A stretch of 64,000 nt of DNA. Source: Verrucomicrobiales bacterium. Its GTDB lineage: Bacteria > Verrucomicrobiota > Verrucomicrobiia > Limisphaerales > UBA9464. The translations under genes were made by a program, and so were the position numbers. The notes under the pieces were generated by a model that was not told where the DNA came from, made no database searches, and saw nothing but the letters and a program-made list of their open reading frames with translations. Below are positions 19,562 through 64,000 of this stretch, piece by piece. The stretch is taken from contig JAEUHD010000212.1 in assembly GCA_016793645.1 (NCBI GenBank), positions 37-64,036 on the forward strand, in the 5' to 3' direction. Position 1 is the stretch's first letter, and every line of letters starts with the position of its first letter.

Positions 19562-19601
19562 GTGGGGAACTCCATCGCAGGGCAGGTGCCGATCCTCCAG
19601 A

Positions 19602-20576: not shown

Positions 20577-23414
20577 ATGCGTTCCCGATCCGGAATCCGA
20601 CCGATCTTCCTGGCGGCACTCGCCGCTGCGGCCACAGGGGTCGTGCGAGGGTCCGATCCTGCGCAGGGACACGAGGTCCCACCCCGGCGCAGTCCCCCGG
20701 CATCTCCCGCCGCCGCAGCCGGTGCCATGGCTCCGGCCGCTTCCCCGGACCCTCCGCGGAAATCCGACGGGTGGTCCTTTCAACCCCTTCACCCGTCGAT
20801 TCCTCCAACCGTCCGCACTCGCCACTGGGCAAGGAATCCCATCGACGCCTACATCCTTTCCGGCCTGGAGTCAGCCGGGCTCGAGCCGTCGCCCGAGGCA
20901 AATCGCCGCACCCTGGTTCGGCGCGCCTCCCTGGATCTCCTCGGGCTCCCGCCGGATCCCGAGAGCGCCGAGGAGTTCGTCCAGAACCCTTCCCCGGACG
21001 CCTGGCCGCGTCTCGTCACGCGACTGCTCGACAACCCCCGGTTCGGGGAACGCTGGGCGCGACACTGGCTGGACATCGCCCGGTTCGCGGAGAGCTCCGG
21101 ATTCGAGCACGACACCGATCGCCCTTCGGCCTATCACTATCGGGACTTTGTCATCCGGGCGTTCAACGAGGACCTGCCCTTTGACCAGTTCGTCCGCTGG
21201 CAGCTCGCCGGAGACGAATTCGAACCGGAGACACCGCTGGCCCTGATGGCCACCGGGTTCCTCGGGGCGGGAGTGTTCCCCACCCAGATCACCGCCAACG
21301 AAGTGGAGCGGACCCGCTACGATGCGCTGGACGACATGCTGTCCACGGCGGGTAGCGCGTTCCTCGGGTTGACGATCGGGTGCGCCCGATGTCACGACCA
21401 CAAATACGATCCGATCCCCACCCGGGACTACTATCGGATGCTCTCCATCTTCACGAGCACGGTCCGCAGCGAGGTCGAGCTGGATCTGAATCCCGAGGAG
21501 ACCCGACGGACCCAGGCCGAACACGAACGAGGACGCCGGGGTCTCCTGGATGCGCAGTTGGGCTACGAACAGCAGGTGCTTCCCGGCCGCTTTGAGCACT
21601 GGCTCGCCACGGGAGCCCAGGAACCGGCCCCCGCGTGGGCGTTGCCCGGGACCTTCGAAATCCAATCCAAGGCAGGCGCGAAGTTCCGCTCCCTTGAAGA
21701 CGGCTCACACCTGGCGGAGGGACGCAATGCGGACAGCGACGTTTACACCCTTCACGCGGAGGTCCCTACCCCCGGCATCCGGGCCCTGCGACTGGAGGCG
21801 CTTTCGGACGTCTCCCTGCCCCGCGGAGGGCCGGGACGGGCCGACAACGGCAACTTTGGATTGAGCCGGATTCGGATCTTCTCGTCCCCAATCTCCGGGG
21901 GGCCGACTAATGAACTCCGAATTGCTTCCGCCCGGGCGACATTCGAGCAGAACACCGGCCCGCTCTCCATCGCATCGGCACTGGATGACGATCCAAAAAC
22001 CGGCTGGGCTGTGGATCCCCGGTTCGGAACCAACCACGCCGCCGTTTTTGAATTCTCCGCCCCCCCCGAAGGACCCGGGGGCGTCCGCCTCACGATACAC
22101 CTCGAATTCGAGGTCAATACCCGCCATCACATCGGCCGGCCGCGCATGGCCGTCAGTACGAGCCCCCACCCGCCCTTGGACGGGGAACCGGTGCCCCCGC
22201 AGATTCCCACCCTGCTGGCCATCGCACAGGCGCAATCCGAATCCCCGCAGTGGCCGGCCGGGGGAAAGGACCAACTCCGCGAGTGGTGGAAGCGGAGGGA
22301 TCCGGGTTGGTCGGCACTTCAGTCCCGGTTGAACGAATACGACCGCAACGCACCCCAGCCGAAACGGACGCGTGTCCTGGTGTGCGCCGAGGGATATCCC
22401 GCCCTTCGCATGAACACCCAGGGTGCGGACTTCTTCCCGGAAACCTATTTTCTCCAACGGGGCAGCACGGACCTCAAGTCCGGTGTCGCCGCACCGGGAT
22501 ACCTCCACGCACTTCCCGGGGGTTCCGTCGATGAATCCCGATGGAACTGGCAGCCTCCCCGGGGCGCGCGTTTTTCGGGCAGACGCCGGGCCCTTGCAAC
22601 CTGGATGACGGATGTGGACCGGGGAGCGGGGGCTTTGCTCGCGCGCGTGATCGTCAACCGCCTGTGGCAACATCATTTTGGCCGCGGGTTGGTGGCCACC
22701 CCAAACGATTTCGGAGCCCAGGGTGCCCGGCCCTCCCATCCGGAGCTTCTGGACTGGCTCGCGGGCGAACTCATCCGGTCCGGATGGCGGCTGAAGCACA
22801 TCCATGCGCTGATTCTCACCAGCGCCACCTATCGGCAGTCCGTTCGACCGCCCCAGGAAGGGATTGATCCGGACCCCGGCAATGCCTATTGGGGTCGTTG
22901 GGTTCCGCGTCGACTCGAGGGGGAGGTCATCCGCGACTCCTTGCTTCACATCTCCGGCTGCCTCGACTCCTCGATGCAGGGTCCGGGAACCCGCGATCTC
23001 TCCAGTCGACGCAGAAGCATCTATTTCACGGTCAAGCGGAGTGAACTGATCCCCGTGCTTCAGGCGTTTGACGCACCCGAACCGCTCGTCAGCCAGGGAA
23101 CCCGTCCGGTCACCACCGTCGCCCCCCAGGCTCTCTTCCTGATGAACAGTCCCCAGATCCGCGATTGGGCCGCGCATCTTGCCCGCCGGATCGACCCGGA
23201 CCCGACCGCCCCCCTCGTCACTCCGATCACGCGCGCCTACGGCTTCGCCCTGAATCGAGCCCCGGTTGAATCCGAGCAGGACGACGCGATCGCCTACGTC
23301 GGCAGCCAGGAGGATCGCCATCGGGCGGCCGGACATTCCGATCCACGGGGCGCCGCCCTGACGGACTTCGCCCAGGTGGTCCTGTGTCTCAACGAATGCA
23401 TCTATGTGGAATAA
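20577..23414 (+). CDS. DUF1549/DUF1553 (PSD1) domain protein
   Basis: Start reset to MRSRSGIRPIFLAALAAAATG. Motifs: NPIDAYI...GLEPSPEA.RRTL.RR.SLDL.GLPP and CARCHDHKYDPIPTRDYY, with a DUF1553-like C-terminus. Confidence 0.9.
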   Translation: MRSRSGIRPIFLAALAAAATGVVRGSDPAQGHEVPPRRSPPASPAAAAGAMAPAASPDPPRKSDGWSFQPLHPSIPPTVRTRHWARNPIDAYILSGLESAGLEPSPEANRRTLVRRASLDLLGLPPDPESAEEFVQNPSPDAWPRLVTRLLDNPRFGERWARHWLDIARFAESSGFEHDTDRPSAYHYRDFVIRAFNEDLPFDQFVRWQLAGDEFEPETPLALMATGFLGAGVFPTQITANEVERTRYDALDDMLSTAGSAFLGLTIGCARCHDHKYDPIPTRDYYRMLSIFTSTVRSEVELDLNPEETRRTQAEHERGRRGLLDAQLGYEQQVLPGRFEHWLATGAQEPAPAWALPGTFEIQSKAGAKFRSLEDGSHLAEGRNADSDVYTLHAEVPTPGIRALRLEALSDVSLPRGGPGRADNGNFGLSRIRIFSSPISGGPTNELRIASARATFEQNTGPLSIASALDDDPKTGWAVDPRFGTNHAAVFEFSAPPEGPGGVRLTIHLEFEVNTRHHIGRPRMAVSTSPHPPLDGEPVPPQIPTLLAIAQAQSESPQWPAGGKDQLREWWKRRDPGWSALQSRLNEYDRNAPQPKRTRVLVCAEGYPALRMNTQGADFFPETYFLQRGSTDLKSGVAAPGYLHALPGGSVDESRWNWQPPRGARFSGRRRALATWMTDVDRGAGALLARVIVNRLWQHHFGRGLVATPNDFGAQGARPSHPELLDWLAGELIRSGWRLKHIHALILTSATYRQSVRPPQEGIDPDPGNAYWGRWVPRRLEGEVIRDSLLHISGCLDSSMQGPGTRDLSSRRRSIYFTVKRSELIPVLQAFDAPEPLVSQGTRPVTTVAPQALFLMNSPQIRDWAAHLARRIDPDPTAPLVTPITRAYGFALNRAPVESEQDDAIAYVGSQEDRHRAAGHSDPRGAALTDFAQVVLCLNECIYVE

Positions 23415-41357: not shown

Positions 41358-44090
41358 CTACCTCTCAGAAACCACGCGCAGAAAGGGGTGGACCGGCTCC
41401 CATTGCCCGGGCGTCGGAATCTCAACAAACCCGTTCGCAGGGATGACGAGGTCCACCGGGCTCCACGTCACGAAATCCGAGGACCCCTCCAGTCGATGCT
41501 TTCCCAAAGGATCGGCCGACAGACCGAACAGGACAAAGTTGGCCTCCCGCCGACGACGTGGAACGAGTGAAAGGACGGGGGCTTCGGAATTCGGATCATC
41601 CACATGCAATTCGCAAGGGTGACTGATCGCCAAACCGTGGCGGTTCCCAACGTGGAGCTCATACGCTCCGGCGTCCGCATCAGAAAACCTGGATACCACC
41701 AACGTTGCGTTGGTCTCTCCGGCAACCGGGTTCCCCAAGCGATACCATTGGAAGGCGAGCGGCGGTTCGCCCGCCGTGACCGCACCCACCACCACCCGCT
41801 GCCCCAATGGGACCGCCCCGGCGGACGAGACTCCCAGAACCCGGGGTTCGAATGCCCCACGGCCCCCTTCCAGTCGTGCGAGTCCCCATCGCTCCTCTCC
41901 GTCAAAACGCCTGAAGTCCCCATAGACGATCATGCTGTCGTCCGGTTGCACGAACAGGGCGCGAACCGGTCTGTCGGCTCCCACGCCCCGCACAAAGGAC
42001 TCGTCCACTGTGCCGTCCGGGTTGAGGCGGATCACCGATGCGGAGGAGACACCGCCGATGCTGCGGAAGGCCCCACCCAGGAGGATCCGCCCCTGGTGAT
42101 CCACCGAGACGGCATTCACAGCCCCATCCACTCTTCCCGGGGAACGAAAACTTGGGTCGGGCGTCCCGTCTTCGGACAGTCGCAGAATGTCGGCATAATG
42201 GGACGGCGTGCCGTCGGCCAGGGAATCCACGGCCAATACCACGCGACCATCCCGCTGAGCGTAGGCAGCCTGAACCCGGGTTCCCGGCGGCAGGGAACTT
42301 CGAAAATTTCGATCCGGATTCAATGTGGGAAGCAACCGGGCCACACCCGGGCTGATCCAGCCGGCAACCCCTGTGAAGGTTCCCCACAGGAGGATTCGGT
42401 CGTCTGCCAGCACCTGCCCGACCGCGCCACCTTGGGGGGTATCCGTTTGAACCGTCCTGGGATGACTGGGATCTTGGGGAGAGACCCGGAACACCTCGTC
42501 CTTCACGACAATTTGCGACAGGTCACTTTGCAATTGATACCCTCGGAGGCTTCGAACCCGCGGACTCGCGATCGCGACGGGTCTCCTGCTTCCGTCGCTT
42601 TCAATCCAGGCCAACCAGCCGGACATGGAATCATGCGCCAGAACGCGACCATCCGGAGTCGCGGAATAGGTCACCGTGTCGTCCTCACGAAGCCAGAGCG
42701 TCAGAGGTCGGTCCAACTCTCCTCCCAAACCCAGAACCGCGGTGCCGGTAACGAACTGGCCATCCACCGACTCAAATTCCGAAGACGCTTTCGGGAATAG
42801 AAGTTTCCCGTCCGGAAATGGAGTCGGACGCGGTGGAGTCACCGACCTCGTCACTTCCGGCGAACGGAACTGCAGAACCTCGTTGGCCGGGGAGAAAAGC
42901 CATGTCGTGTAGCGAAAGCGCCCCTGAGGATCGGAATTCTCGCCGAATCCAGTGGGAGCAACGGAGGTGGCCAGAACCATTAGGTTTTCCCCGGGCGTCC
43001 GGATGACCTCAGGAAAGGGAAAATCCTGAACCAACTCAGGCAATGGGCGGCGGGAGACCGCGATACCCGTTCCATCCAGTTCGACAAGCGCCGCGCGGTG
43101 GGGAGGGCTGGGAGATTCCTGGACGAGGACACGCCAATGCCCCTCGGCAGTAGCCTCGACGCTCGAATAGATCTCCAGACTCGGTTGAAAATTCGGATTT
43201 GCCCGACCACTGGGAAGCAACTGCACCGCCCGGGAGATTCCAACATCCTCTTCCGGGGTAATGTCGAACCCAACCATGAACACGGTACCGTCCGGTCCGA
43301 CCGCCACCCTTCCTGGGAACGTCACGTTCAACTCTGCCGGCGGCTGATAGCCCTGATCCAAGCCGCCCCCGGGCTGGAGTCGCTCCCAACGGGTGCCAAT
43401 GTGCCCCTGCAGTACGCGCTCCTTCGGGATGTATTGCACGGCAATGCGCCCATCCTCCAGAACCCACGCGCCTTCGAACCTGCGGCCGTCGTTGACGGCA
43501 CAGGAAAACGTCGGATCCTCAGTGCCAGTCGGCAGCAACCGCACCAGTTGGTGTTGGCGGCCGTAGAAGGGCTCCGGCAAATCTCGAACCACCAGCAATC
43601 TGCCATCGGGCTGAACCGCCAATAAATGCCAGGCTTCTGCCTCCGATGCCATGGGAAGCCTGAACGCCTCGTCGCGCCGTCCGTCCTCGGTCAAGTGAAG
43701 GATTCCCTTTCGATCTGAGGATCCGGTCCCGTCGTAGGGTGGCGAAAGATACACGTACACTCCGCCATCGGGTTGGGGAAAGACTGCGTTCAGGACGGCG
43801 TTCGTCAGGAATGGCGACGCCACAAAACCGGTATCAATCGTCCCGTCCGAAAAGACCCGCGCCAGACGGCGAACTTCAGTTCCGGAAATGTCGATCACGT
43901 CGGGCGCAACCTCCAACAGCAGCCGGCCATCGGGATACGGGTGAATTCCGTACGGCTGATTTCGTTGCTCGAATCGGGGATGATACGCCGGATCCAACTT
44001 TCCCCCGCCGGCCAGCAATGGCGAACGGGAGAGAATCATCCATCCGGTGAGGGCACCCACCGCCGCAAGCGTGATTCGAAGCCGGAGCAT
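41358..44090 (-). CDS. Secreted delta-60-repeat beta-propeller protein with Ig-like domain
   Basis: Start reset to MLRLRITLAAVGALTGWMIL (cat at 44088-44090). The listed ORF up to 45143 is antisense to the methyltransferase. Repeats have the form DG..D.(S/T)F.......V.A...Q.DG(R/K)I(L/V)..G.F. The Ig unit reads PLAFQWYRLG...ATLVVSRFSDADAGAYELHV. Confidence 0.75.
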   Translation of the reverse strand: MLRLRITLAAVGALTGWMILSRSPLLAGGGKLDPAYHPRFEQRNQPYGIHPYPDGRLLLEVAPDVIDISGTEVRRLARVFSDGTIDTGFVASPFLTNAVLNAVFPQPDGGVYVYLSPPYDGTGSSDRKGILHLTEDGRRDEAFRLPMASEAEAWHLLAVQPDGRLLVVRDLPEPFYGRQHQLVRLLPTGTEDPTFSCAVNDGRRFEGAWVLEDGRIAVQYIPKERVLQGHIGTRWERLQPGGGLDQGYQPPAELNVTFPGRVAVGPDGTVFMVGFDITPEEDVGISRAVQLLPSGRANPNFQPSLEIYSSVEATAEGHWRVLVQESPSPPHRAALVELDGTGIAVSRRPLPELVQDFPFPEVIRTPGENLMVLATSVAPTGFGENSDPQGRFRYTTWLFSPANEVLQFRSPEVTRSVTPPRPTPFPDGKLLFPKASSEFESVDGQFVTGTAVLGLGGELDRPLTLWLREDDTVTYSATPDGRVLAHDSMSGWLAWIESDGSRRPVAIASPRVRSLRGYQLQSDLSQIVVKDEVFRVSPQDPSHPRTVQTDTPQGGAVGQVLADDRILLWGTFTGVAGWISPGVARLLPTLNPDRNFRSSLPPGTRVQAAYAQRDGRVVLAVDSLADGTPSHYADILRLSEDGTPDPSFRSPGRVDGAVNAVSVDHQGRILLGGAFRSIGGVSSASVIRLNPDGTVDESFVRGVGADRPVRALFVQPDDSMIVYGDFRRFDGEERWGLARLEGGRGAFEPRVLGVSSAGAVPLGQRVVVGAVTAGEPPLAFQWYRLGNPVAGETNATLVVSRFSDADAGAYELHVGNRHGLAISHPCELHVDDPNSEAPVLSLVPRRRREANFVLFGLSADPLGKHRLEGSSDFVTWSPVDLVIPANGFVEIPTPGQWEPVHPFLRVVSER

Positions 44091-44285
44091 GGCTGTCTCG
44101 TTGGATCGTCTGTATTCCCAACGGTGACCGATCGGGAACCGGGCCGTGGCCCTCGCCCAAGAACGCAACTGCAATGCCAACAGCCCAACGGAAGATGGGC
44201 CCACTTCAGGAATATCCCTCACCCACAACTTCCCGGGCCATCCCGCTTGGAATTCCCGACGGGAGTTCGTACAAGCGCCGCGACG

Positions 44286-44978
44286 ATGAACACCGGGGAT
44301 CTTCGGATATTTACCGACACCTGGTCCCTGTACGACCGGGTCCTGCTCGGGAACTACATGTTCCACGAGGAGATTTTTCGGGTCGTTGGCGACCTCCTGT
44401 CCACCCGGTGCCGCCCGGGCGAGTTCCGGATTCTCGACCTCGGATGCGGAAATGCACGCCACCTCGCGTCCATCCTCATCGGACGCCCTCCCGCACTCTA
44501 TGCCGGCTACGATCTGTCCGCCTCGGCACTGTGCCAGGCCCGATCCCAACTCGACGCCCTCCCCTGCCCCTCGGATCTCCGCCAGGCCGACTTTCGGGAT
44601 GCGTTTCACACCCTTGCCAATCCATTTGGGGTAATCTTCTCCAGTTTCGCGGTGCATCACCTCTCCTTCGATCAGAAGCAGCAATTCTTCCTCGACGCGC
44701 GGAACCTTCTCGCGCCGGGTGGATTTCTTCTGCTGGTGGACACCAGCCGGGAAGCCGATGAGGACCGGGAGGCCTATCTGCGGAACTATTGCCAATGGGT
44801 GCACGCCGATTGGTCCGCGCTTTCGGCCGGGGACCTCGCCGCCATTGAGGACCACATCCGGAAACGGGATTTCCCCGAAACCAGCGCCGCCATTCAAACC
44901 ATGGCGGCGTCCGCGGGTTTCCGCCGCTCGGCGGTGGTGGCCCGGTACCGATGGCATCGCACCTGGCTGTTGGAGTGA
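44286..44978 (+). CDS. Class I SAM-dependent methyltransferase
   Basis: Start reset to MNTGDLRIFTD. Contains ILDLGCGNARH (motif I) and LAPGGFLLLVD. Confidence 0.8.
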   Translation: MNTGDLRIFTDTWSLYDRVLLGNYMFHEEIFRVVGDLLSTRCRPGEFRILDLGCGNARHLASILIGRPPALYAGYDLSASALCQARSQLDALPCPSDLRQADFRDAFHTLANPFGVIFSSFAVHHLSFDQKQQFFLDARNLLAPGGFLLLVDTSREADEDREAYLRNYCQWVHADWSALSAGDLAAIEDHIRKRDFPETSAAIQTMAASAGFRRSAVVARYRWHRTWLLE

Positions 44979-45157
44979 TCGAATGAAACCAACGACGGGT
45001 CCGACGGGTCGTGGAGAGTGACGATCCGGTCGGACGCTGTCGGGCTCCCTGAGGTACCCAAATCGACCGGCGCGAAGCCTTGACGGATGAAACACATCCC
45101 CGGATAGTCCGCCGCTCGTTTCTGGACTCCGGGACAGTGCCACCGGTGGCCTTTGCT

Positions 45158-54957: not shown

Positions 54958-55077
54958 AGGTCAGTCCGGAAAGGCCCTGAGGCGCGGACGCCTCCCGGAA
55001 ACGGGGCGTGTCGGATCCACGGAGTCCTTTCCCCGGCATCCCGTCCGGCGCGGCGGGATTCCCGCAACCCCGCTAAC

Positions 55078-55147
55078 TGGGTAAGGTGCGAAACAATTTC
55101 GTTTCCCCGGGAGCCCGTGCGGACGCGAAATCCGGGCAAACCCTTAC
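55078..55147 (+). promoter_or_regulatory. Structured, paralog-conserved leader element upstream of 55214 (counterpart at about 60700-60752)
   Basis: GTAAGG (55081-86) pairs with CCTTAC (55142-47). This encloses CGAAA-caa-TTTCG and CCCGG..CCG-tg-CGG..CCGGG. The 9-mer CCCCGGGAG sits 109 nt before the ATG of the first paralog (55105) and 108 nt before the ATG of the second (60713). Confidence 0.35.
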
Positions 55148-55213
55148 TTACTTCAACCAACTGATTTTCGTAATCGGGCTTGTTTTCCCAACAAAACCTA
55201 GTTTTATGGGATC

Positions 55214-58200
55214 ATGAATGTTGAGCGCTTTGGACGCGCCCCCCATTTCTTTCACCTCCTGCTCCTGTGTTTTCTTCCGAGTGCGGCTGACGCACAATGG
55301 TTGACCGGAGGGCCCTCACCCCTCCCCGTCCGCGCTCCGCAGGCGGCGTACACCGTGGTGGACGCATTCCCGGGAATGCCGTTTCCGCTGGCGACCGACG
55401 CGCCCGTCACGCTCGCAACGCCCCCCGGAGGAACAAACGAACTCTTCGTCGGCGGCCTGTTTGGGCAGGTGTATGTGATCACCAATCTCACGGCGCCCAC
55501 CAAGACGCTGTTCCTCGACATTTCCGCGAAGACGTTCGCTCCCGGGGCCACCCTTTCGGAATCGGGCCTGGTCGGCCTGGCCTTCCATCCCCGGTACGCG
55601 CAGAACCGCTACTTCTATGTCTTCTACACGCGGACGAACCTCGTGGAGGGAAAAACGTATGATACGCTCTCGCGATTCGAGACGGATCCGGAGAATCCGT
55701 GGCGGGCGCTTCCGGATTCCGAGCACATCCTGATCTCCCAATGGGACCGACATGATGTTCATCAGGCGGGCGATCTCCACTTCGGAGCCGATGGCTACCT
55801 GTACGTGTCCCTGGGTGACGAGGGGACGCCGAATGACTTCTTCAAGAACAGCCAGCGGATCGATCAGAACTTCTTTTCTGGAATCCTCCGGATCGATGTC
55901 GACAGTCTTCCCGGAAACCTGCCGCCGAACCCCCATCCGTCCGTCGTCGGCGAATACAGGGTTCCCGCCGACAACCCGTTCGTCGGGGCCACGAGCTTCA
56001 ACGGGATTCCGGTCCCCCCCGAATCGGTCCGCACCGAGTTCTACGCGGTGGGACTGAGAAACCCCCACCGCTTCTCGATCGATTCCGCCACGGGGGAAAT
56101 CTACAGCGGGGACGTGGGGGCCTCCCGACTGGAGGAGGTCAACCGGATCGTCAAGGGCGGCAACTATGGCTGGGCGTATCTGGAGGGAAACCTCCGTTTC
56201 CCGGATGCGGCGATCGGCGCTCCGCCGCCAGGATTCACATCCATCCCGCCCATCTACAGCTACGCCCACACCGGTGACGATCCGAACTTCACAGGGCATG
56301 CGATCATCGGCGGCTTTGTCTATCGGGGGAAGGCCCATCCCGAACTGATCGGAAAGTACATCTTCGGGGACGTCTTCTCCTGCCACGTCTGGGCCATGAC
56401 GCTGAATCCGTCCGGCCCGCCCACGGTCACCCGCATCGCCACCGGCAACCGCGGAATGAGTTCCTTCGCCATCCACCCGGGCACCGGGGAGATTCTCCTG
56501 TGCGAACTCTTCGGAGGCAGGATTTCCAAACTTCAAAGAACCTCCGTCGAGGGGGACTCCACGCTTCCGCCGACCCTGGGAGAATCCCGGGTGTTCTCCG
56601 ATCTCGAAACGCTCACCCCGGCGGCGGGTGCGGTCCCCTACGATGTGATGTCCACCTTCTGGTCCGACAACGCCATCAAGCGCCGCTGGTTCTTCATGCA
56701 GAACGCCACCGACCGCATCCACCGGGAATCCGACGGCCAATGGAGCTACCCGACGGGCACCGTGTTCGTGAAGCACTTCGACTTTGAATTTGAAGTGGGG
56801 AATCCCGCCTCCCGCCGCCGACTGGAAACGCGGATCCTGATGAAGACCGAGGACGCCACCTATGGCATCACCTACAAGTGGCGGCCGGATGGACTCGAGG
56901 CGGACCTGGTTCCGGACTCCGGACTCGACGAATCCCTTCAGATCAACGACGGCGGCATTGTCCGAACCCAGGTCTGGCACTATCCGGGACGATCCGAGTG
57001 TCTGACCTGCCACAACAGCGGCGCGCGCCACGTCCTCGGATTCAATGCGCTCCAACTCAACCGGGACGTCCCTTCCGGGGATGGGACGCCGGTCAACCAA
57101 CTGGCCCTGCTTTCCCGCCTCGGTGTTTTCGACAATCCCGTCACCTCCCCGGAAAGTCTGCCGCACCTCTCCGCCATCACCGACACCGCGGCGTCGGTGG
57201 AGTCGAGGTTCAAGACCTACCTCGAAGTGAACTGCGCCTATTGCCATCTGCCCGGAGGCCTGGGACGTGGCGTCTGGGATGCCCGGTTCACGACCCCCTT
57301 GGATGAGTCCGGCATCATCAATGGAAGCGTCATTGACGACCTCGGCGTCCCCGGAGCCCGCGTCATCCGCCCCGGAGATCCCACCGCCTCCGTGATGTGG
57401 AAGCGTGTCGCCGAAATGGGCGCGGACCACATGCCGCCCCTCGGCACCTCGGTCCTGAACACGACGGGCATCGCGTTGTTGGAGCAGTTCATCCAGGGCT
57501 ATGTCACGGCCAGCGCGGACCGAACCGTCTGGCAGGTCGGCCAGGACTCCCCGCCGGGAACCCGGGCGACGCTGACCTTTGCGGAGTTCTCCCTGCCCAA
57601 CAACCGGAACGACGCCCCGCCCGGCGCGGTCACCCGGGAATTGGGGGACGCGGACTATGATCCCGATTCAAACCCCAAGGCGGATGACGACTATTACTTC
57701 AAGGGAACCTACCCGGCCGGCTTCAACGGCCTCACGGGGGAACGTGTCGTCTCCGCAGACGAACCGAGCTGGGCCTGGGAGCGCGCCCACACCCTCGGTG
57801 ATCCCGTCAACCGGATCCATTTTGTTCTCACCCCGGACCAGGTCGCCGAAGGGGCACGATTCCGACTCCGGTTTGAAATGTCCGCCGGCGGATACGCCGT
57901 GGACAACGTCCCGCGGTCGGGATTCAGCGCCCATGATTTCGTGGTTCGCTTCCGCAATGGAGACGGTGTGGAGACCACCCTCTACTCGCAAACCCTGACC
58001 CGGCCCACGGACACCACCGTGGATTTTCTCGGCACCACGGTCCATGCGACCGCCGGAGCCAACACCATCGAGTTCACGCGGACCGGCCCCGCGGCTCCGT
58101 CAACCTCCTACTGGATCGAATACGATGTGGTTCGACTGGAACAACTGGTCCACGCGAACTCCGCGCCGGAATTTTCCGAGGCCGATCCGCAGACAATTCC

Positions 58201-60385
58201 GGAACTGCTTCCCTGGACCTGGAACGTGACCGCCACCGACGTGGATGCCGAGGACGAGCTCACCTACTCGCTGGTGAGCGGACCCGCAGGCATGACCCTG
58301 ACGCCCGCCGGGGAGCTGTCCTGGACACCCACCGAAGCACAGGGACCATCCACCAACCTCGTGACGGTGCGGGTCATGGACAATGGATTCCCACGGCTCA
58401 GCGCCGTGCAACAGGTGGTCGTAATCGTGCTGGAGGTACCCGATCCCGTATCCGGGCCGCGCACGACCTGGCAGATTGGGGACGATGCTCCCCCCGGATC
58501 GAAGCCCCCCACCACCGTCGCGGAATTCTCAATGCAGAACGCCCGGAGGGACGCGCCTCCAGGGGAGGTCACCCGACTCCCGGACGATCCCGAGTTCCTC
58601 GGCGAGGCCAACCCGGGACCGGATGACGACTTCTATTTCGCGGGCTTCTACCCGGCAGGCTTCAATGGCCTGGAGGTGGATCGAATCGTTCCGGTGGACG
58701 AACCCGCATCGGCATGGGAGAGAGCCCACACGCTGGGGGATCCGGTCAACCGATTCCACTTCGTCCTCAGCCCGGTGCAGGTGGCGGAAGGTTCGCGATT
58801 CCGCCTTCGCTTCGAGCTTCCCACCGGGGGAAGTTCGGAACCCGGATCCGGGTTTGGAGCCCACGACTTCGAGGTCCGGTTCCTGAATGGCGCGGGGGCG
58901 GCCACGACCCTGTTCTCCCAGCACCTGACGCAGCCCACGGATGCGACCGTCGAGTTTCTTGCGACGGACGTCGCCGCAACGCCCGGACCGAACACCATTG
59001 AACTGGTCCGGACCGGACCGTCCGCCGACGAGACCTCCTATTGGCTCGAGTACGATGTCGTTCGACTCGAAGCCCTCGGCGGCGCCGCGAACACCGCCCC
59101 CTCCTTCGTCGCACCCGGAACACAAACCATTCCGGAACTGACCCCCTGGTCGATGCCGGTGCCGGCCCACGATGCCGATGTTCCCGCCAACATTCTCACT
59201 TATAAACTCCTGGGCGGTCCCGAGGGAATGGGCATCGGAAAGTACGATGGGCTCCTTTCCTGGACACCCGGCGAAACCCAGGGACCGTCCACCAACCTGA
59301 TCACTGTCCAGGTCACCGACAATGGAACCCCACCCCTCAGCGAGACCGTCCAGTTCACCGTGGTGGTCGAGGAGCTGGAGGATGTTGCCGGGGCTCCGCG
59401 CAACGTTTGGAAGATTGGGGAGGACGCCCCGGTGGGCGCCACCCTCCGTTCCAATTATTCGGAGTTCTCGCCCCCGAACTACAGGAACGATCCCCGTCCC
59501 GGTCACGTGACCCGTCTGCCGGATGATCCGCTTTACGTGGCCGAGTCCAATCCGAAGGCCGACGATGATTTCTACTTCAAGGGGGACTATCCCGCCGGAT
59601 TCAATGGTTTGTCCGAAGCCCTTCCGGTCCCGAACGACGAGCCAGCGTCCGCATGGGAGTATGATCACACGCGAGGGGATGCCACGAACCGATTCCACTT
59701 CATCCTCTCCCCGGAACAGGTGGCGCCCGGCGCGCGGTTCCGCATCAGCATGGAGTTCCCGACCGGCGGCCGGAGAATTGGCAACAAGATCGCCCCCGGC
59801 TTCGGGACTCACGACATGGTCGTGCGATTCCGCAATGAGGCGGGACGGGAGACCGTTCTCCAATCCGTACGCCTGACCCAGGGTTCCCGGTTGTGGACGG
59901 ATTTCACGGCCGCGGACGTCGGTGCGAATGTCGGGCCGAACACGATTGATATCGTCCGGGTCGGCCCCCGGGTGGAGGGCGAGCAGCCCTGGATCACCTA
60001 CGATTTCGTCCGGTTGGAGTCGCTCGTGACGCCAAGCCCGGGTGAGGTCGCGAGCGTCGAACCGACGACGGAAGCTCCGCGGGTCGCCGCCTTCTCCCCT
60101 GCCCCGCGGGCCGTCCGGGCACCCGCACTGAAGCCGGGCTCGATCACCGCGGCAGGCGGCGAGTATCTCACCCTCACCTACGCGCGTCCCTCCGGGGTGA
60201 AGCACCAGGTGGAGGTCAGCGAGGATCTCCTGACCTGGACTCCGGCAACGGTGGTCAAAATCGCGGAGACCCAGGTGGACGGAAAATGGATGGTCACGGT
60301 CCGCGACACGGTTCCCGTCGGGGAGGGACGTCATCGGTTCCTCCGCCTCCGGGTGTCGGCAACGGGCTCGCAGGTCGCGGAGTGA
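55214..60385 (+). CDS. Giant secreted fusion protein: PQQ-type soluble sugar dehydrogenase propeller, then a di-CxxCH (HNE_0200-like) domain, then 3 copies of a novel module interleaved with 2 cadherin-like domains, then a C-terminal beta-sandwich tail
   Basis: Signal peptide LLLLCFLPSAADA. SGDH motifs: GLVGLAFHPRYAQNRYFYVFYT, HQAGDLHFGADGYLYVSLGDEG, GLRNPHRFSID..GDVG...EEVN..KGGNYGW. CLTCH lies at 56999-57013 and CAYCH at 57233-57247, within ..YDVMSTFWSDNAIKRRWF...PTGTVFVKHF...LETRILM... Repeats begin at 57521, 58460 and 59399. Confidence 0.9.
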   Translation: MNVERFGRAPHFFHLLLLCFLPSAADAQWLTGGPSPLPVRAPQAAYTVVDAFPGMPFPLATDAPVTLATPPGGTNELFVGGLFGQVYVITNLTAPTKTLFLDISAKTFAPGATLSESGLVGLAFHPRYAQNRYFYVFYTRTNLVEGKTYDTLSRFETDPENPWRALPDSEHILISQWDRHDVHQAGDLHFGADGYLYVSLGDEGTPNDFFKNSQRIDQNFFSGILRIDVDSLPGNLPPNPHPSVVGEYRVPADNPFVGATSFNGIPVPPESVRTEFYAVGLRNPHRFSIDSATGEIYSGDVGASRLEEVNRIVKGGNYGWAYLEGNLRFPDAAIGAPPPGFTSIPPIYSYAHTGDDPNFTGHAIIGGFVYRGKAHPELIGKYIFGDVFSCHVWAMTLNPSGPPTVTRIATGNRGMSSFAIHPGTGEILLCELFGGRISKLQRTSVEGDSTLPPTLGESRVFSDLETLTPAAGAVPYDVMSTFWSDNAIKRRWFFMQNATDRIHRESDGQWSYPTGTVFVKHFDFEFEVGNPASRRRLETRILMKTEDATYGITYKWRPDGLEADLVPDSGLDESLQINDGGIVRTQVWHYPGRSECLTCHNSGARHVLGFNALQLNRDVPSGDGTPVNQLALLSRLGVFDNPVTSPESLPHLSAITDTAASVESRFKTYLEVNCAYCHLPGGLGRGVWDARFTTPLDESGIINGSVIDDLGVPGARVIRPGDPTASVMWKRVAEMGADHMPPLGTSVLNTTGIALLEQFIQGYVTASADRTVWQVGQDSPPGTRATLTFAEFSLPNNRNDAPPGAVTRELGDADYDPDSNPKADDDYYFKGTYPAGFNGLTGERVVSADEPSWAWERAHTLGDPVNRIHFVLTPDQVAEGARFRLRFEMSAGGYAVDNVPRSGFSAHDFVVRFRNGDGVETTLYSQTLTRPTDTTVDFLGTTVHATAGANTIEFTRTGPAAPSTSYWIEYDVVRLEQLVHANSAPEFSEADPQTIPELLPWTWNVTATDVDAEDELTYSLVSGPAGMTLTPAGELSWTPTEAQGPSTNLVTVRVMDNGFPRLSAVQQVVVIVLEVPDPVSGPRTTWQIGDDAPPGSKPPTTVAEFSMQNARRDAPPGEVTRLPDDPEFLGEANPGPDDDFYFAGFYPAGFNGLEVDRIVPVDEPASAWERAHTLGDPVNRFHFVLSPVQVAEGSRFRLRFELPTGGSSEPGSGFGAHDFEVRFLNGAGAATTLFSQHLTQPTDATVEFLATDVAATPGPNTIELVRTGPSADETSYWLEYDVVRLEALGGAANTAPSFVAPGTQTIPELTPWSMPVPAHDADVPANILTYKLLGGPEGMGIGKYDGLLSWTPGETQGPSTNLITVQVTDNGTPPLSETVQFTVVVEELEDVAGAPRNVWKIGEDAPVGATLRSNYSEFSPPNYRNDPRPGHVTRLPDDPLYVAESNPKADDDFYFKGDYPAGFNGLSEALPVPNDEPASAWEYDHTRGDATNRFHFILSPEQVAPGARFRISMEFPTGGRRIGNKIAPGFGTHDMVVRFRNEAGRETVLQSVRLTQGSRLWTDFTAADVGANVGPNTIDIVRVGPRVEGEQPWITYDFVRLESLVTPSPGEVASVEPTTEAPRVAAFSPAPRAVRAPALKPGSITAAGGEYLTLTYARPSGVKHQVEVSEDLLTWTPATVVKIAETQVDGKWMVTVRDTVPVGEGRHRFLRLRVSATGSQVAE
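57521..60025 (+). repeat. In-frame tandem repeat with an exact 939-nt (313-aa) period, 2.67 units (coding)
   Basis: The landmark codons R-T-(V/T)-W (R-N-V-W in unit 3) start at 57521, 58460 and 59399. Each unit is an approximately 215-aa module plus a cadherin-like domain of about 95 aa. Unit 3 lacks the cadherin part. Confidence 0.9.
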
Positions 60386-60597
60386 TCCCGCACAATCCGG
60401 CAACAATCCCGAGTTGCCAGCGAGCCTTCCGCTGAAGCGGGGCTCTCGGAACTCGACGCCGCTCGGCACCCACCGCGCTCGTCAAGGCGCCCCCCCCACG
60501 CGGGTGGTCGCGGCTGAGCCGACGCGGACCGCCGGCGACAGCGCCGCCGCCTGCCGGGAATTCGCGGGAAGCCCCGAATTGCTGGCGGTGAGTCATA

Positions 60598-60649
60598 CCC
60601 AGGGCCGACCGTCTTCCCGATCACCATCGGGAAATGGTCGGCCCTCGGG
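60598..60649 (+). other. Long nested hairpin in the inter-paralog spacer (possible terminator or processing site, no U-tract)
   Basis: AGGGCCGACC (60601-10) pairs with GGTCGGCCCT (60636-45). Inside it, TTCCCGAT (60614-21) pairs with ATCGGGAA (60626-33), leaving loop cacc. Confidence 0.4.
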
Positions 60650-60820
60650 ATGACGAGCGCGGGGACTCCGATTCGAGAAATGCCGGGACGGAATCCCGCT
60701 TCCGCGTCACGTCCCCGGGAGTCCGAGGACGAACTTCCGAACCCCGCCTTACGCACCCAAGAAGCTCTTCTTGTTGCAATGCGACTTGTATTTGGGGGCA
60801 TTCGTTGCTCTCTATGGTTC

Positions 60821-63800
60821 ATGAGTTTAGTGCGTAACGGGTGCACGCCGCGGTGGATTTGGACACTTCTCCTGGCCTTGTTGCCGGGATACTCCTACGC
60901 ACAGTGGTTGACCGGTGGCCCCTCCCCTCTTCCCCTCACGGCGCCGCAGGCCGCCTACACCGTGGTCGATGCCTTCCCCGGACTCTCGCTCCCGCTCGCC
61001 ACGGACGCCCCCGTGGCCCTGGCCACCCCCCCGGGTCGGACGAATGAATTGTTCATCGGGGGACTGTTCGGAAAGGTCTACGTCATCACCAACCTGCTGG
61101 CACCGACCAAGACGGTGTTCCTCGATCTTTCGGCGAACACATATGCCCCTGGAGCTACCCTCTCAGAGTCGGGATTGGTCGGATTGGTGTTTCATCCCCA
61201 GTACGCGCAGAACCGCTACTTCTACGTCTTCTACACCCGAACCAACCGACTGGAGGGAAAAACCTACGACACCCTTTCCCGGTTCCAAACCGATCCCGCC
61301 AATCCTTGGAGGGCGCTCCCGGACTCCGAGCGGATCCTGTTCTCGCAATGGGACGAGCATGACATCCATCAGGCCGGCGACCTCCATTTTGGTCCGGACG
61401 GCTACCTCTACGCCTCACTCGGGGACGAAGGGGCGCAGAACGACCTCTTCAGGAACAGCCAGCGGATCGACAAGGACTTCTACTCCGGAATCATCCGCAT
61501 TGATGTGGACGAAAAGGCGGGAAGCCTGGCGCCGAATCCGCACTCCGCAATCGGCGGCGGATACCGGATTCCCCCCGACAATCCGTACATCGGCGCGACC
61601 AGCTTCAATGGACTCCCCGTCTCCCCCACCTCGGTCCGAACGGAATTGTGGGCGGTGGGTCTCCGAAACCCGCATCGCTTCTGCATCGATTCCCTCACCG
61701 GGGAATTGTACGGCGGCGATGTCGGCGGTTCGCGAGAGGAGGAGGTGAATCGCCTCGTGAAGGGCGGCAACTATGGCTGGGGATACTACGAGGGCACCCT
61801 GTTCAATCCCGATGCCCTCATCGGAGCGCCGCCGGCGGGCTTCACCTCGACTCCCCCCATCTACACCTACCCCCACACCGGGGGCGACCCAAACTTCACC
61901 GGTCATGCGGTCATCGGAGGCCTGGTGTACCGGGACACCACCTATCCTGATCTCTACGGCAAATACATCTTCGGTGACGTCTTTTCCTGCCATGTCTGGG
62001 CCATGACGCTGAATCCATCCGGAACGCCGACCGTCGCCCGGATCGCGACCGCCCCTCGCGGAATGAGTTCCTTTGCGATTCATCCTGGCACGGGGGAGAT
62101 CCTGTTGTGCGAACTGTTTGGGGGCCGGATTTCCAAGCTTCAGCGCTCTTCCGTCTCGGGTGATCCCGCGCTCCCCGCGACGCTGAGCGCCTCCCGCGTC
62201 TTCGCGAACACGGCCTCCCTGACACCCGCGGCCGGAGCCGTCCCCTACGACGTCATGTCGACCTTCTGGTCGGACAACGCGATCAAGCGTCGCTGGTTCT
62301 TCATGCAGAATGCGACGGACCGGATTCGGCGCAATACCGGGGACCAGTGGACCTATCCCACGGGAACCGTGTTCGTGAAACATTTCGATTTTGAATTCGA
62401 GGTCGGGAATCCCGCCTCGCGCCGCCGCCTGGAAACCCGCGTGCTGATGAAGACTGCGGATGCCATCTACGGACTCACGTACAAGTGGCGTCCCGACGGA
62501 CTGGACGCGGACCTGGTCCCGGACGCCGGACTCAACGAATCCCTCGTGATCAACGACGGCGGCATCATCCGAACCCAGGTGTGGCGCTATCCGGGACGTT
62601 CCGAATGCCTCACCTGCCACAACGGCAATGCGCGGCACGTTCTCGGCTTCAACGCGCTTCAACTCAACCGGAGTGTCACCAATGGGGCGGGCGCGACCGT
62701 CAACCAACTCGCCCTGTTCTCCGGACTGGGGGTGTTCGACACCCCGATCCCAAACCCCGAGTCACTGCCCCGCCTGTCGGCGATCAATGACACCACCGCT
62801 TCGTTGGAATCGCGGTTCAAGACGTACCTTGAGGTCAACTGCGCCTACTGCCATCAACCCGGAGGACTGGGTCGCGGGGTTTGGGATGGCCGGTTCTCCA
62901 CGCCCCTGGACCAGGCGGGCATCATCAATGGAACCGTGGCCGACGATCTCGGGGTTCCCGGCGCCCGGGTCATTCTTCCCGGCGTGCCCGCCTCGTCCGT
63001 CCTTTGGAAACGGGTCGCCGAAATGGATTCGAATCACATGCCCCCCCTCGGGACCTCGGTGCCGAACACCGCGGGCATTTCCCTCCTCGAACAATTCATC
63101 ATCAGCTACGTGCCGCCCACGGTGGAGCGGACCGTCTGGCAGATCGGACAGGATTCCCCGCCGGGCACCCTGCCCCCGACCACGTTTGCGGAGTTTTCCC
63201 TTCCGAACAACCGGGCGGATCCATCCCCGGGAGTGGTGACCCGCCAACTGGGAGATCCCGAGTTTGTGGCCGACGCCAATCCCGGCGCCGACGATGACTT
63301 CTACTTCGCCGGCACCTATCCCGCCGGATTCAACGGATTGACCACCCCCCGATCCGTACCGTCGGATGAACCCGCGTGGGCGTGGGAGCGGGCCCATACC
63401 CTGGGGGACACTGCCAACCGATTCCATTTCGTCCTGAGCCCGGCACAGGTCGCCGCGGGCGTGAAGTTCAAGCTTCGGTTCGAACTGTCCAGCGGCGGAT
63501 GGGCCGTGGGCGGAGTTCCCCGAACGGGCTTCGGCACCCACGATTTCAGCGTCCGGTTCCGGAACGGATCCGGCGTGACGACCACCCTCTACTCGCAACG
63601 GCTCACCCAGGCCACCGATGCCTCGATGGAATTCCTCGCAACGGCCGTCGCGGCAACGGCGGGCCCGAACACGATCGAACTCATTCGGACCGGTCCCGCG
63701 GCGGCGAACACCTCGTACTGGGCGGAGTATGACGTGGTACGCCTGGAGCAGGTTCTTCCGCCCAATACGGCGCCGGTCTTTACGGCCGTGGGCACCCCAT

Positions 63801-64000
63801 CCATCCCCGAACTGACCCCGTGGACCATGAACCTTGTGGCGACGGATGCGGACATCCCCGCCAATACCCTGACCTATTCCCTGGTCAGCGGACCGGACGG
63901 TCTGTCCGTGACCGGAGCCGGGGTCATGACGTGGACGCCGACCGAGGCACAGGGCCCCTCCACCAATGTGGTCACGGTGAAGGTAGCCGACAATGGAACC
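60821..64000 (+). CDS. Tandem paralog of 55214..60385 (PQQ-type sugar dehydrogenase, di-CxxCH domain, novel module, cadherin-like domain); 3' end cut by window edge (>=1060 aa)
   Basis: Absent from the ORF track because it has no stop in the window. ATG 60821 gives MSLVRNGCTPRWIWTLLLALLPGYSYAQWLTGGPSPLP... It is colinear with the upstream gene. CLTCH lies at 62606-62620 and CAYCH at 62840-62854. The module starts (RTVW) at 63128, which is 2307 nt from the ATG, the same offset as in the first copy. Confidence 0.88.
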   Translation, partial: MSLVRNGCTPRWIWTLLLALLPGYSYAQWLTGGPSPLPLTAPQAAYTVVDAFPGLSLPLATDAPVALATPPGRTNELFIGGLFGKVYVITNLLAPTKTVFLDLSANTYAPGATLSESGLVGLVFHPQYAQNRYFYVFYTRTNRLEGKTYDTLSRFQTDPANPWRALPDSERILFSQWDEHDIHQAGDLHFGPDGYLYASLGDEGAQNDLFRNSQRIDKDFYSGIIRIDVDEKAGSLAPNPHSAIGGGYRIPPDNPYIGATSFNGLPVSPTSVRTELWAVGLRNPHRFCIDSLTGELYGGDVGGSREEEVNRLVKGGNYGWGYYEGTLFNPDALIGAPPAGFTSTPPIYTYPHTGGDPNFTGHAVIGGLVYRDTTYPDLYGKYIFGDVFSCHVWAMTLNPSGTPTVARIATAPRGMSSFAIHPGTGEILLCELFGGRISKLQRSSVSGDPALPATLSASRVFANTASLTPAAGAVPYDVMSTFWSDNAIKRRWFFMQNATDRIRRNTGDQWTYPTGTVFVKHFDFEFEVGNPASRRRLETRVLMKTADAIYGLTYKWRPDGLDADLVPDAGLNESLVINDGGIIRTQVWRYPGRSECLTCHNGNARHVLGFNALQLNRSVTNGAGATVNQLALFSGLGVFDTPIPNPESLPRLSAINDTTASLESRFKTYLEVNCAYCHQPGGLGRGVWDGRFSTPLDQAGIINGTVADDLGVPGARVILPGVPASSVLWKRVAEMDSNHMPPLGTSVPNTAGISLLEQFIISYVPPTVERTVWQIGQDSPPGTLPPTTFAEFSLPNNRADPSPGVVTRQLGDPEFVADANPGADDDFYFAGTYPAGFNGLTTPRSVPSDEPAWAWERAHTLGDTANRFHFVLSPAQVAAGVKFKLRFELSSGGWAVGGVPRTGFGTHDFSVRFRNGSGVTTTLYSQRLTQATDASMEFLATAVAATAGPNTIELIRTGPAAANTSYWAEYDVVRLEQVLPPNTAPVFTAVGTPSIPELTPWTMNLVATDADIPANTLTYSLVSGPDGLSVTGAGVMTWTPTEAQGPSTNVVTVKVADNGT

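Follow-up and report, generated by a model that had tools for sequence, protein, structure and literature searches.

Three giant genes carry five copies of one module

The stretch of DNA that we analysed, 64,000 nt in its full length (hereafter the window), contains three giant genes with a module of 215 residues in common. Gene A (55214-60385, plus strand) encodes a protein of 1723 aa, as defined from the list of open reading frames, its translation, and Pfam and NCBIfam scans. The parts of this protein are, in order, a signal peptide, a glucose/sorbosone-dehydrogenase (GSDH)-type β-propeller, a diheme cytochrome c, three modules and a C-terminal Ig-like tail, with an Ig domain after modules 1 and 2. 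The six-bladed propeller (55556-56410, plus strand; aa 115-399) matches Pfam PF07995 with E = 9e-28, and its sequence relatives in the PDB are HHIP, soluble quinoprotein glucose dehydrogenase and aldose sugar dehydrogenases. The cytochrome region (56567-57496, plus strand; aa 452-761) is of the SO2930 type; it matches TIGR03806 with E = 7.8e-56 across profile positions 2-312 of 314, at a score of 189.5 bits that lies below the curated cutoff of 313. This region contains two CxxCH motifs, CLTCH at aa 596 and CAYCH at aa 674. Two cadherin-like/Ig spacers separate the modules, at 58166-58459 and 59096-59398 (both plus strand; bounds of the first from alignment A1), and Pfam He_PIG matches two stretches of gene A, the better of which lies in the second spacer (aa 1296-1385).

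The Ig-like tail of gene A (60119-60382, plus strand; ~88 aa) has the pattern YLTLTY...E.S.DL..W...TVRD...RFLRLRV, and jackhmmer placed the same domain at the extreme C-terminus of ~40 module-bearing proteins. It gave weak matches to Pfam DUF3999. An AlphaFold2 model of the tail (pLDDT 89.7) has six strands and found no significant match among PDB folds, and a word-index search with the tail returned zero candidates. Pfam and NCBIfam scans detected no PEP-CTERM match (PF07589/TIGR02595) at the end of gene A, which has the Ig-like tail instead.

Gene B (60779-64000, plus strand; start codon at 60779 or 60821) is a tandem paralog of gene A with 75% identity, and one module is seen in it before the window ends. 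Gene C (2-4600, minus strand; start codon at 4600, 4633 or 4693) encodes at least 1533 aa, comprising 11 LVIVD repeats, Big_9/cadherin-like Ig domains (five Big_9 stretches pass individually), one module and the beginning of another Ig domain. Gene B reaches the window edge and gene C runs off the window start; both are cut, with their C-termini outside the window. An ortholog of gene C in L008 is 2465 aa long and has a second module 499 aa further on.

A family HMM, applied to the six-frame translation of the whole window, detected five module copies and no more: three in gene A, one in gene B and one in gene C, with domain E-values of 1e-54 to 1e-68. Translation of 57521-60385 gave three homologous units in gene A, beginning at 57521, 58460 and 59399. 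By alignment A1 and the family HMM, copy A1 spans 57521-58165 (aa 770-984; E = 6e-68), copy A2 58460-59095 (aa 1083-1294) and copy A3 59399-60043 (aa 1396-1610), all on the plus strand and the last with no Ig domain after it. Copy B1 (63128-63772, plus strand) is followed by a Big_9 Ig domain, detected by Pfam, that ends at the window edge (63773-64000). Copy C1 lies at 59-703 on the minus strand (aa 1300-1514 of gene C, counted from 4600) and is 86% identical to its positional equivalent in L008.

Translation, alignment and the family HMM confirm the original prediction of a 215-residue module common to three giant genes, including a fourth copy that starts at 63128 in the downstream paralog; the motifs listed for it agree with the alignment consensus. 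The copy predicted at 705-85 on the minus strand, in the LVIVD protein, is present with bounds of 703-59. A cadherin-like domain had also been proposed to follow every copy except the last of gene A. This is true of the window, where Pfam He_PIG, Big_9 and Cadherin account for these domains, but not of the family as a whole.

Family distribution, repeat spacing and age of the triplication

A phmmer search of 1.84e9 representative proteins with unit 2 as query retrieved 163 relatives at E <= 1e-3 and 65 at E <= 1e-30; their named sources are Verrucomicrobiota, Verrucomicrobiae and Akkermansiaceae only. We also scanned 185,579 species genomes with two exact peptide patterns from alignment A1, an approach that reaches close relatives only, and found such relatives in just three MAGs. 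Elsewhere in the family, modules directly abut each other or accompany Laminin_G_3, TSP3 or GDSL-lipase domains (the last below the Pfam cutoff). The C-termini of family proteins alternate between PEP-CTERM and the Ig-like tail, a PEP-CTERM-like signal being present in 42 of 197 proteins. In small, distant relatives, a signal peptide, a single module and a PEP-CTERM signal are all there is; hence, the module works alone. As judged from these sequences, it appears to be a single autonomous domain, of which one copy plus PEP-CTERM forms a whole cell-surface protein in such relatives. In the five places shown, FG-GAP/UnbV_ASPIC genes adjoin small relatives every time, and sulfatase genes lie near them twice.

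The module starts in gene A are exactly 313 codons (939 nt) apart, and the original prediction read this as a period free of indels and as a sign of strong structural constraint. The period is indeed exact. However, formal alignment shows that the A2 unit has three residues fewer inside the module than A1, A3 and B1, offset by three single-residue gains in the linker and Ig part relative to the first spacer. Thus, the spacing is equal because the deletion and insertions of A2 compensate. In the ortholog P0006/L001, the unit spacings are 314 and 316, and module-plus-Ig spacings across homologs range from 309 to 317; other spacings among homologs are ~212-223, where modules are directly adjacent, and 499. 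Since the alignment contains indels and orthologs deviate in period, the period is not conserved, and a strong structural constraint on it is not supported. We consider it a coincidence without biological significance: 939 nt corresponds to a module and an Ig domain taken together, in which indels happen to cancel out.

Identity between the units is 45-69% at the protein level and 53-69% at the DNA level. Because of this DNA divergence, Tandem Repeats Finder reported nothing for 55000-64000. The protein sequence of each unit is constrained and under purifying selection; dN/dS between units is 0.09-0.37, with dS saturated. Units of gene A pair by position with those of the ortholog, at 69-75% identity as compared with 51-63% between units inside gene A. 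The triplication is old, and occurred before the split from the nearest sequenced relative.

Remote homology and predicted fold of the module

In direct searches, the window copies passed the threshold of no model in Pfam-A or NCBIfam and matched nothing among PDB sequences. What these databases returned for the window units was sub-threshold noise (choice_anch_R, DUF6456 and Pizza designs); the choice-of-anchor R model NF041539, for example, scored 18.9 bits against unit 1 (E = 0.001, aa 117-203 only; cutoff 30) and did not match units 2 and 3. PF14683, the CBM-like domain III of polysaccharide lyase family 4 (PL4), did not match genes A, B or C or the window units at E <= 1, and a profile built from 52 modules had zero matches among PDB sequences at E <= 10.

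Relatives of the window copies gave a different result. Of 52 diverse modules taken singly, 15 matched PF14683, the lowest E-value being 2.6e-7. CBM_35 was matched by four of the 52 (best E = 0.0019) and CBM_6 by one (E = 2.3e-5), all sub-threshold, and neither was matched by any window copy. Two relatives scored above the PF14683 gathering threshold of 27 bits, P0065 with 42.7 bits and P0017 with 36.9 bits over profile positions 2-160 of 160; these above-cutoff scores are sums over copies, and no single stretch reached the per-stretch E limits of 0.01 and 1e-4. P0017 is 50% identical to a window unit. A phmmer search of the PDB with two PF14683-positive relatives did not retrieve 1NKG. On this sequence evidence, the window modules appear to be tied to PF14683 by transitive homology and not by direct membership.

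AlphaFold2 modelled copy A1 with a pLDDT of 86.4 and a pTM of 0.85, as an almost wholly β structure of 13 strands and one short helix, which we describe as a divergent CBM-like β-sandwich. The best PDB matches found by Foldseek were 3njx, 2xhn and 1nkg, all PL4 rhamnogalacturonan lyase (E = 5e-4 to 1.7e-3, probability 1.0), followed by CBM4, CBM36, CBM22, the BT0996-C CBM and a porphyran-binding CBM. Superposition on the PL4 lyase gave a query-normalised TM-score of 0.38 and an rmsd of 6.4 Å over 163 columns, a weak match by absolute standards, the aligned part of the 508-residue chain not being specified.

We considered whether these signals are generic β-sandwich noise around a fold or family that is truly new and has no relation to CBMs. 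The absence of direct matches for the window copies, the blank result of the 52-module profile among PDB sequences and the TM-score of just 0.38 would all fit such a reading. Against this, sequence profiles and structure search, two independent methods, converge on PF14683 and on PL4 lyase chains, respectively. In addition, 20 of the 24 other listed families are matched by one member each, as opposed to the 15 that match PF14683, and several of the PF14683 alignments shown span all 160 profile positions. We therefore regard a new fold as very improbable. We conclude that the module family is a remote offshoot of PL4 domain III, in the structural neighbourhood of CBM6, CBM35, CBM36, CBM4 and CBM22. 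The module had been described as unassignable; by direct search it is, but it is not an orphan, since relatives match PF14683 and the best fold match of its model is PL4 lyase. Through these two routes, a match to a known CBM-type family was found in part. The earlier guess of Ca2+ or glycan binding fits both the predicted fold and the remote homology. Literature searches on PF14683, and on PL4 domain III with calcium, yielded genome surveys, with nothing on the module family.

PL7 alginate lyase was tried as a separate candidate identity, since DDDYYFKGxYP in the module resembles YFKAGxYxQ, which we take to be a PL7 motif. It was rejected: on inspection, the order of motifs along the chain differs from what is presumably the PL7 order, and no PL7 structure is among the best 50 Foldseek matches.

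Proposed function and comparison with known systems

The overall reading that we favour, with a probability of roughly 0.6, is that the module is a lineage-specific glycan-binding β-sandwich, probably stabilised by Ca2+, that serves as a multivalent tether on large secreted proteins. Fold class, remote homology and domain architecture make non-catalytic glycan binding its most likely job. Conserved acidic motifs would probably hold a structural and/or ligand-bridging Ca2+, the candidates being EF..QE close to the N-terminal end, DDDYYF, DEP, GD..NR.HF and, within the final strand, FDYVRLE. The modules of genes A and B are strung on cadherin-like Ig spacers and lie behind a secreted GSDH-type propeller fused to diheme cytochrome c. 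Through avidity, multivalent binding could then keep a quinohaemoprotein-like sugar dehydrogenase in place on a surface or polymeric substrate. The gene C protein, made of an LVIVD propeller and an Ig stalk, carries the module as well.

The conservation pattern of the module might instead point to enzymatic activity. Charged and aromatic invariants include D55, D57, Y59, R88, H100, H138 and D202, and conservation reaches at least 90% at D55, D57, Y59, Y64, R88, F101, N181 and D202 across the 52 diverse modules, which is unusually strong for relatives that are just 25-35% identical. So many invariant residues of this kind are unusual for a CBM and could form a catalytic or metal centre instead. 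The module could thus be an enzyme, namely a small jelly-roll from a new family of polysaccharide lyases or glycoside hydrolases. Its active site would comprise the invariant Asp, Glu, His, Arg and Tyr, which would make the giant proteins multi-catalytic. Jelly-roll lyases and hydrolases are typically ~215 aa, the size of the module; one weak GH16 match (E = 6e-4) falls within a module of the ortholog, and the stand-alone PEP-CTERM forms hold no other domain. However, the best 50 Foldseek matches include no lyase or hydrolase jelly-roll catalytic domain, and where a role is evident, it is mostly one of binding or accessory function (CBMs, the enterotoxin C-terminal receptor-binding domain, lambda gpJ, the Kex2 P-domain and BcsB). 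Profile matches likewise point to PF14683, CBM_35 and CBM_6, and tandem copies with Ig spacers behind a separate catalytic domain are the classic layout of CBMs. An enzymatic role is, in our judgement, quite unlikely.

The partners of the module raise another alternative, namely that it serves surface fibrils as a Ca2+-dependent domain, structural or adhesive, and makes cell-cell, cell-matrix (the cell's own exopolysaccharide) or protein-protein contacts without targeting an enzyme. Cadherin-like, He_PIG, Big_9, TSP3 and LVIVD partners are typical of adhesins, and the PEP-CTERM signal that ends about a fifth of the family proteins is linked to exopolysaccharide-producing cells. The FG-GAP/UnbV_ASPIC neighbours of the small relatives favour the same role, as do Foldseek matches to receptor-binding domains with protein targets (lambda gpJ and Clostridium perfringens enterotoxin). 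Yet the profile homology is specific to carbohydrate-related sandwich domains, and fusion to a sugar-dehydrogenase-type propeller and cytochrome is more easily explained by substrate targeting. We consider purely adhesive function unlikely, and it would overlap with the glycan-binding tether if the ligand were the cell's own glycan.

A more specific version of the glycan-binding tether, which we put forward tentatively as possible but doubtful, is that the module represents a new CBM family, so far seen in Verrucomicrobiota alone, whose target is an environmental glycan, acidic or sulfated, that it recognises via Ca2+, and that it tethers the propeller-diheme-cytochrome quinohaemoprotein of genes A and B to this polymer. 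Verrucomicrobiota are major degraders of complex and sulfated polysaccharides. If this version is correct, the gene A and B proteins would be bacterial counterparts of the fungal AA12-AA8-CBM1 pyranose dehydrogenases, feeding electrons to oxidative polysaccharide breakdown. The layout of the host protein, with a sugar-dehydrogenase propeller, a c-type cytochrome and three putative binding modules, hints at bacterial extracellular redox chemistry on polymers. Binding of a defined glycan would add a lineage-specific CBM family and provide a handle on what giant unannotated surface proteins of Verrucomicrobiota recognise. A family profile, for example from alignment A2, could annotate ~160 protein clusters that are now called 'hypothetical' or just 'PEP-CTERM domain-containing'.

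Several known systems share features with the module or its hosts. Distant family members, with signal peptide, module and PEP-CTERM, resemble PEP-CTERM/exosortase surface proteins; gene A differs from these in having no PEP-CTERM signal, and genes B and C end outside the window. The name of the NCBIfam 'choice-of-anchor' domains describes the way in which this family swaps its C-termini (PEP-CTERM or Ig-like tail), and the weak match to choice-of-anchor R covers the C-terminal half of the module only. By the account in PMC4332668, the fungal enzyme CcPDH combines a cytochrome (AA8), a PQQ dehydrogenase propeller (AA12) and a CBM (CBM1) in one protein, and genes A and B follow a similar three-function logic, as an analogy of architecture only. 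The cytochrome is of type b in CcPDH and diheme c in genes A and B, the domains follow another order, CBM1 is unrelated to the module, and both PQQ binding and activity of the gene A and B proteins are putative.

CBM6, CBM35 and CBM36 have a common fold class with the module and are used in tandem with spacers on enzymes. The structural Ca2+ site of these families presumably has a pattern similar to that of the module's N-terminal acidic strand motif and last-strand Asp (FDYVRLE). Unlike the module, with ~215 aa and a putative ligand, they are ~120-140 aa long, and their profile matches are sub-threshold. Domain III of PL4, as in rhamnogalacturonan lyase of Aspergillus aculeatus (1NKG, 2XHN, 3NJX), is a β-sandwich (jelly-roll) of ~160-200 residues, as is the module in its predicted fold; domain III is regarded as CBM-like and binds Ca2+. 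The module has ~50 extra N-terminal residues, mostly loop (WQIG...PPG.VTRLP.DP), and its own motif set. PL4 lyases combine domain III with a catalytic β-supersandwich domain I and an FnIII-like domain II, whereas neither of these two was detected when genes A, B and C and nine large homologs were scanned with Pfam; the domains found there were GSDH, cytochrome, LVIVD, Ig-type, GDSL (below cutoff), LamG and TSP3. PL4 is mainly fungal and plant, while all named sources of the module are Verrucomicrobiota.

Module copies and their spacing

In-frame translation of 57521-60385 (forward strand) gives three homologous units of ~215 residues each, starting at 57521, 58460 and 59399 and enclosed in a single 1723-aa open reading frame (gene A, 55214-60385, forward strand). 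Two further copies lie in genes that run off the ends of the window: gene B, on the forward strand (frame open over 60518-64000; start codon probably at 60779 or 60821), and gene C, which encodes LVIVD repeats on the reverse strand (open from 4783 to 2). When all six reading frames were searched at full sensitivity with a family HMM, these five copies were detected with domain E-values of 1e-54 to 1e-68, and no sixth copy was found in the window. Aligned with MAFFT, the five copies share 66 invariant columns, are 45-67% identical to unit 1 and show the motifs of the original prediction. We conclude that the module is real and far above chance.

The three unit starts are exactly 313 codons apart, as had been proposed. 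However, the period is not free of indels: in unit 2 the loop behind a '..TGG' motif is three residues shorter, and the linker/Ig part has three additional single residues. Nor is it conserved, since the units of P0006, the ortholog of gene A at locus L001 of a related MAG, start at 756, 1070 and 1386 (spacings of 314 and 316). Among homologs, 19 adjacent pairs with a 'module plus one Ig' spacing are 309-317 residues apart, and in other homologs modules abut directly (212-223) or are separated by 499 residues. These varying spacings show that the period is nothing more than the combined length of a module and an Ig domain; exact equality in gene A is a coincidence.

DNA identity between units is 53-69% and synonymous sites are saturated (pS of 0.58-0.74), which explains why Tandem Repeats Finder reported no repeat. 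dN/dS between units is 0.09-0.37, and every unit has been maintained under purifying selection. The units of gene A pair by position with those of the ortholog (A1, 69%; A2, 75%; A3, 71% identity, versus 51-63% among the gene A units), indicating that the triplication predates the species split. The module of gene C shares 86% identity with the corresponding unit at locus L008.

Assignment to a CBM-like sandwich

Direct searches left the window copies unannotated. Pfam-A gave no match in the three gene A units at E <= 1 and, on whole proteins, detected only flanking domains (GSDH, He_PIG, Cadherin, Big_9, LVIVD). NCBIfam yielded just one sub-threshold match, to choice-of-anchor R (18.9 bits), in the C-terminal half of unit 1, and neither one unit nor a 52-sequence profile found anything meaningful among PDB sequences. 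To this extent the original prediction, which could assign the module to no family, stands; but the module is not an orphan. When 52 diverse modules were each scanned singly against Pfam, 15 matched PF14683 (best E = 2.6e-7), the 'CBM-like' domain III of polysaccharide lyase family 4 (PL4). CBM_35 was matched by four, DUF7383 by two and CBM_6 by one (E = 2.3e-5); each remaining listed family was matched by a single member. Several matches span the whole 160-position PF14683 profile (homologs P0141, residues 32-195 against 2-160; P0085, 25-198 against 1-160). Two multi-copy proteins exceed its 27-bit gathering score (P0065, 42.7 bits; P0017, 36.9 bits), these bits being sums over copies, with no single stretch inside the stricter per-stretch E-value limits of those scans (0.01, 1e-4). 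P0017, whose best stretch is 604-801 against profile positions 2-160, is a close relative, 50% identical to window unit 2. Hence, the chain of homology from unit to relatives to PF14683 stands, even though by Pfam's own criterion the window copies themselves do not count as members.

AlphaFold2, given unit 1 with a 49-row alignment, predicted 13 beta strands and one short helix, with residues 8-54 mostly non-regular (pLDDT 86.4, pTM 0.85). In a Foldseek search of the PDB with this model, the top match was the PL4 rhamnogalacturonan lyase of Aspergillus aculeatus (3njx, E = 5.2e-4), with 2xhn and 1nkg close behind, all three at probability 1.0 over 163 columns. Next came Cry11Aa, lambda gpJ, CBM4, the C-terminal domain of Clostridium perfringens enterotoxin, CBM36 and CBM22, and further down the BT0996-C CBM, a porphyran-binding CBM, BcsB and the Kex2 P-domain. 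TM-scores are low (0.38 for the best match, query-normalised), so the structural match is a distant one. Nevertheless, the structure search, which is independent of sequence profiles, appears to reach the same family. A truly new fold is very improbable, because two independent methods converge on one family. We conclude that the module, though unannotated, is not an orphan but a CBM-like sandwich, divergent yet related to PL4 domain III.

Could such a sandwich be a jelly-roll enzyme? Its charged residues are conserved unusually strongly, and a weak Glyco_hydro_16 match falls inside a module of the L001 ortholog of gene A (aa 960-1001, E = 6e-4, profile positions 36-78 of 175). This match, which alone points to kinship with enzymes, probably reflects general similarity among sandwich domains. 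The 50 best Foldseek matches include no jelly-roll catalytic domain, and those with an obvious role are mostly binding or accessory sandwich domains. We consider catalysis unlikely. A likeness of the module motif to PL7 was also considered and rejected, as the motif order does not agree.

Family distribution and host proteins

A word-indexed search of 5.8 billion clusters found four relatives only, all from Verrucomicrobiota MAGs. Exhaustive phmmer against 1.84 billion representatives found 163 proteins at E <= 1e-3, 65 of them at E <= 1e-30. The family splits into two tiers. Close members (43-67% identity) are multidomain giants that carry between one and five copies. Distant members (~30-40%) include proteins with two to four copies, as well as 215-260-residue proteins in which a single module lies between a signal peptide and a PEP-CTERM sorting signal. 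Compared with the window type, distant members have a shortened version of the ~50-residue N-terminal stretch (W.LG.DD...EF.QE...PG..), and the core motifs are kept (DDDYYF.G.Y, (F/W)ERA.T.GD..NR.HF, HD, G.N..E..R.G, W.QFDY..LE). Distant members that have a database name are listed as 'PEP-CTERM sorting domain-containing protein [Akkermansiaceae]' or 'hypothetical' and nothing more specific. A scan of 185,579 species, one genome each, with two peptide patterns from the window copies, which detects close relatives only, yielded only three Verrucomicrobiota MAGs with four loci each (12 in all); these loci repeat the host architectures GSDH plus modules and LVIVD plus Ig plus modules. A look-up of the gene A protein returned no identical entry. 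Named sources are Verrucomicrobiota in every case.

Gene A begins with a signal peptide, judged by eye, and a GSDH-type propeller (PF07995, E = 9e-28) whose sequence relatives in the PDB are HHIP, soluble quinoprotein glucose dehydrogenase and aldose sugar dehydrogenases. There follows an SO2930-type diheme cytochrome c region with CLTCH and CAYCH motifs, matching TIGR03806 over its full length (E = 7.8e-56) at 189 bits versus a curated cutoff of 313, which makes it a divergent subfamily. The three modules come next, with an Ig spacer behind the first and second, and then an 88-residue C-terminal domain. Gene B, 75% identical to gene A, is its tandem paralog. In the N-terminal half of each (55214-57520 and 60779-63127, forward strand) a GSDH/sGDH-type beta-propeller is joined to an SO2930-type diheme cytochrome c. 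In gene C, eleven LVIVD repeats and several Big_9-type Ig domains precede the module, and its ortholog has a second module 499 residues further along. Partners in other proteins are Laminin_G_3, bacterial TSP3 repeats, many Ig types and, below the Pfam cutoff, a GDSL lipase domain. The module is thus an accessory domain that joins catalytic or structural partners of unrelated kinds, recurs along Ig spacers and can also stand by itself on the cell surface, and in this it behaves like a binding module.

The tail of gene A (60119-60382, forward strand; YLTLTY..VE.S.DL..W...TVRD..P...RFLRLRV) closes ~40 module-bearing proteins at their very C-terminus; in 42 of the 197 family proteins a PEP-CTERM-like signal stands there instead. 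It is matched weakly by DUF3999 in 19 of 31 members and by nothing else in Pfam. The AlphaFold2 model is a six-strand Ig-like sandwich of high confidence (pLDDT 89.7), to which no PDB fold matches significantly (best E = 0.018). This domain may serve in anchoring or sorting.

Another giant secreted-type protein of this neighbourhood (8868-16946, forward strand; 2692 aa) has a CotH kinase-like domain, six lamin-tail domains (LTD) and a weak CBM_4_9 match. The window also encodes ClpB (16958-19744, reverse), a PSCyt2/PSD1 (DUF1549/DUF1553) protein (20397-23414, forward), of a type typical of the PVC superphylum, and a 1261-aa DUF5122 beta-propeller protein (41358-45143, reverse). GC content is ~64% throughout, with uniformly negative skew. 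Long antisense or overlapping frames of up to ~700 aa shadow the real genes (55316-57430 and 58529-60469, both reverse, and many more); they are expected at 64% GC and are not to be read as genes.

Proposed function and known counterparts

We propose that the module is a Ca2+-stabilised glycan-binding sandwich. A structural Ca2+ site would be made up of the acidic motif of the N-terminal strand (E-F-x-Q-E across the family, of which E22-F23 is the same in all window copies) together with the last-strand Asp (D202 in FDYVRLE), and residues of DDDYYF, DEP, GD..NR.HF and HD would form a ligand or second metal site; both assignments presumably carry over from CBM6/35-type modules. Three copies would provide avidity for a polymer, and in genes A and B the modules would keep the propeller-cytochrome unit on its substrate. 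The small PEP-CTERM relatives (loci L013-L017, around 8001-8771 of Akkermansiaceae contigs) adjoin divergently oriented FG-GAP_3 and UnbV_ASPIC genes in all five places shown; sulfatase genes (two of the five), GFO_IDH_MocA and PSCyt/PSD genes lie nearby. This context is compatible with glycan biology, although not decisive. That the module is instead an adhesin or structural domain, for protein or for the cell's own matrix, seems unlikely, and would overlap with glycan binding if the ligand were the cell's own glycan.

The module is of value mainly as a handle for annotation and as a candidate for a new CBM family, carried by an unusual bacterial enzyme of quinohaemoprotein-like type. The fungal quinohaemoprotein CcPDH is described as combining a cytochrome, a PQQ dehydrogenase and a CBM1 (PMC4332668). 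Genes A and B are like it in architecture, an analogy that does not extend to homology of the binding module. Their propeller, diheme cytochrome c and binding-type modules parallel the fungal AA8-AA12-CBM1 pyranose dehydrogenase.
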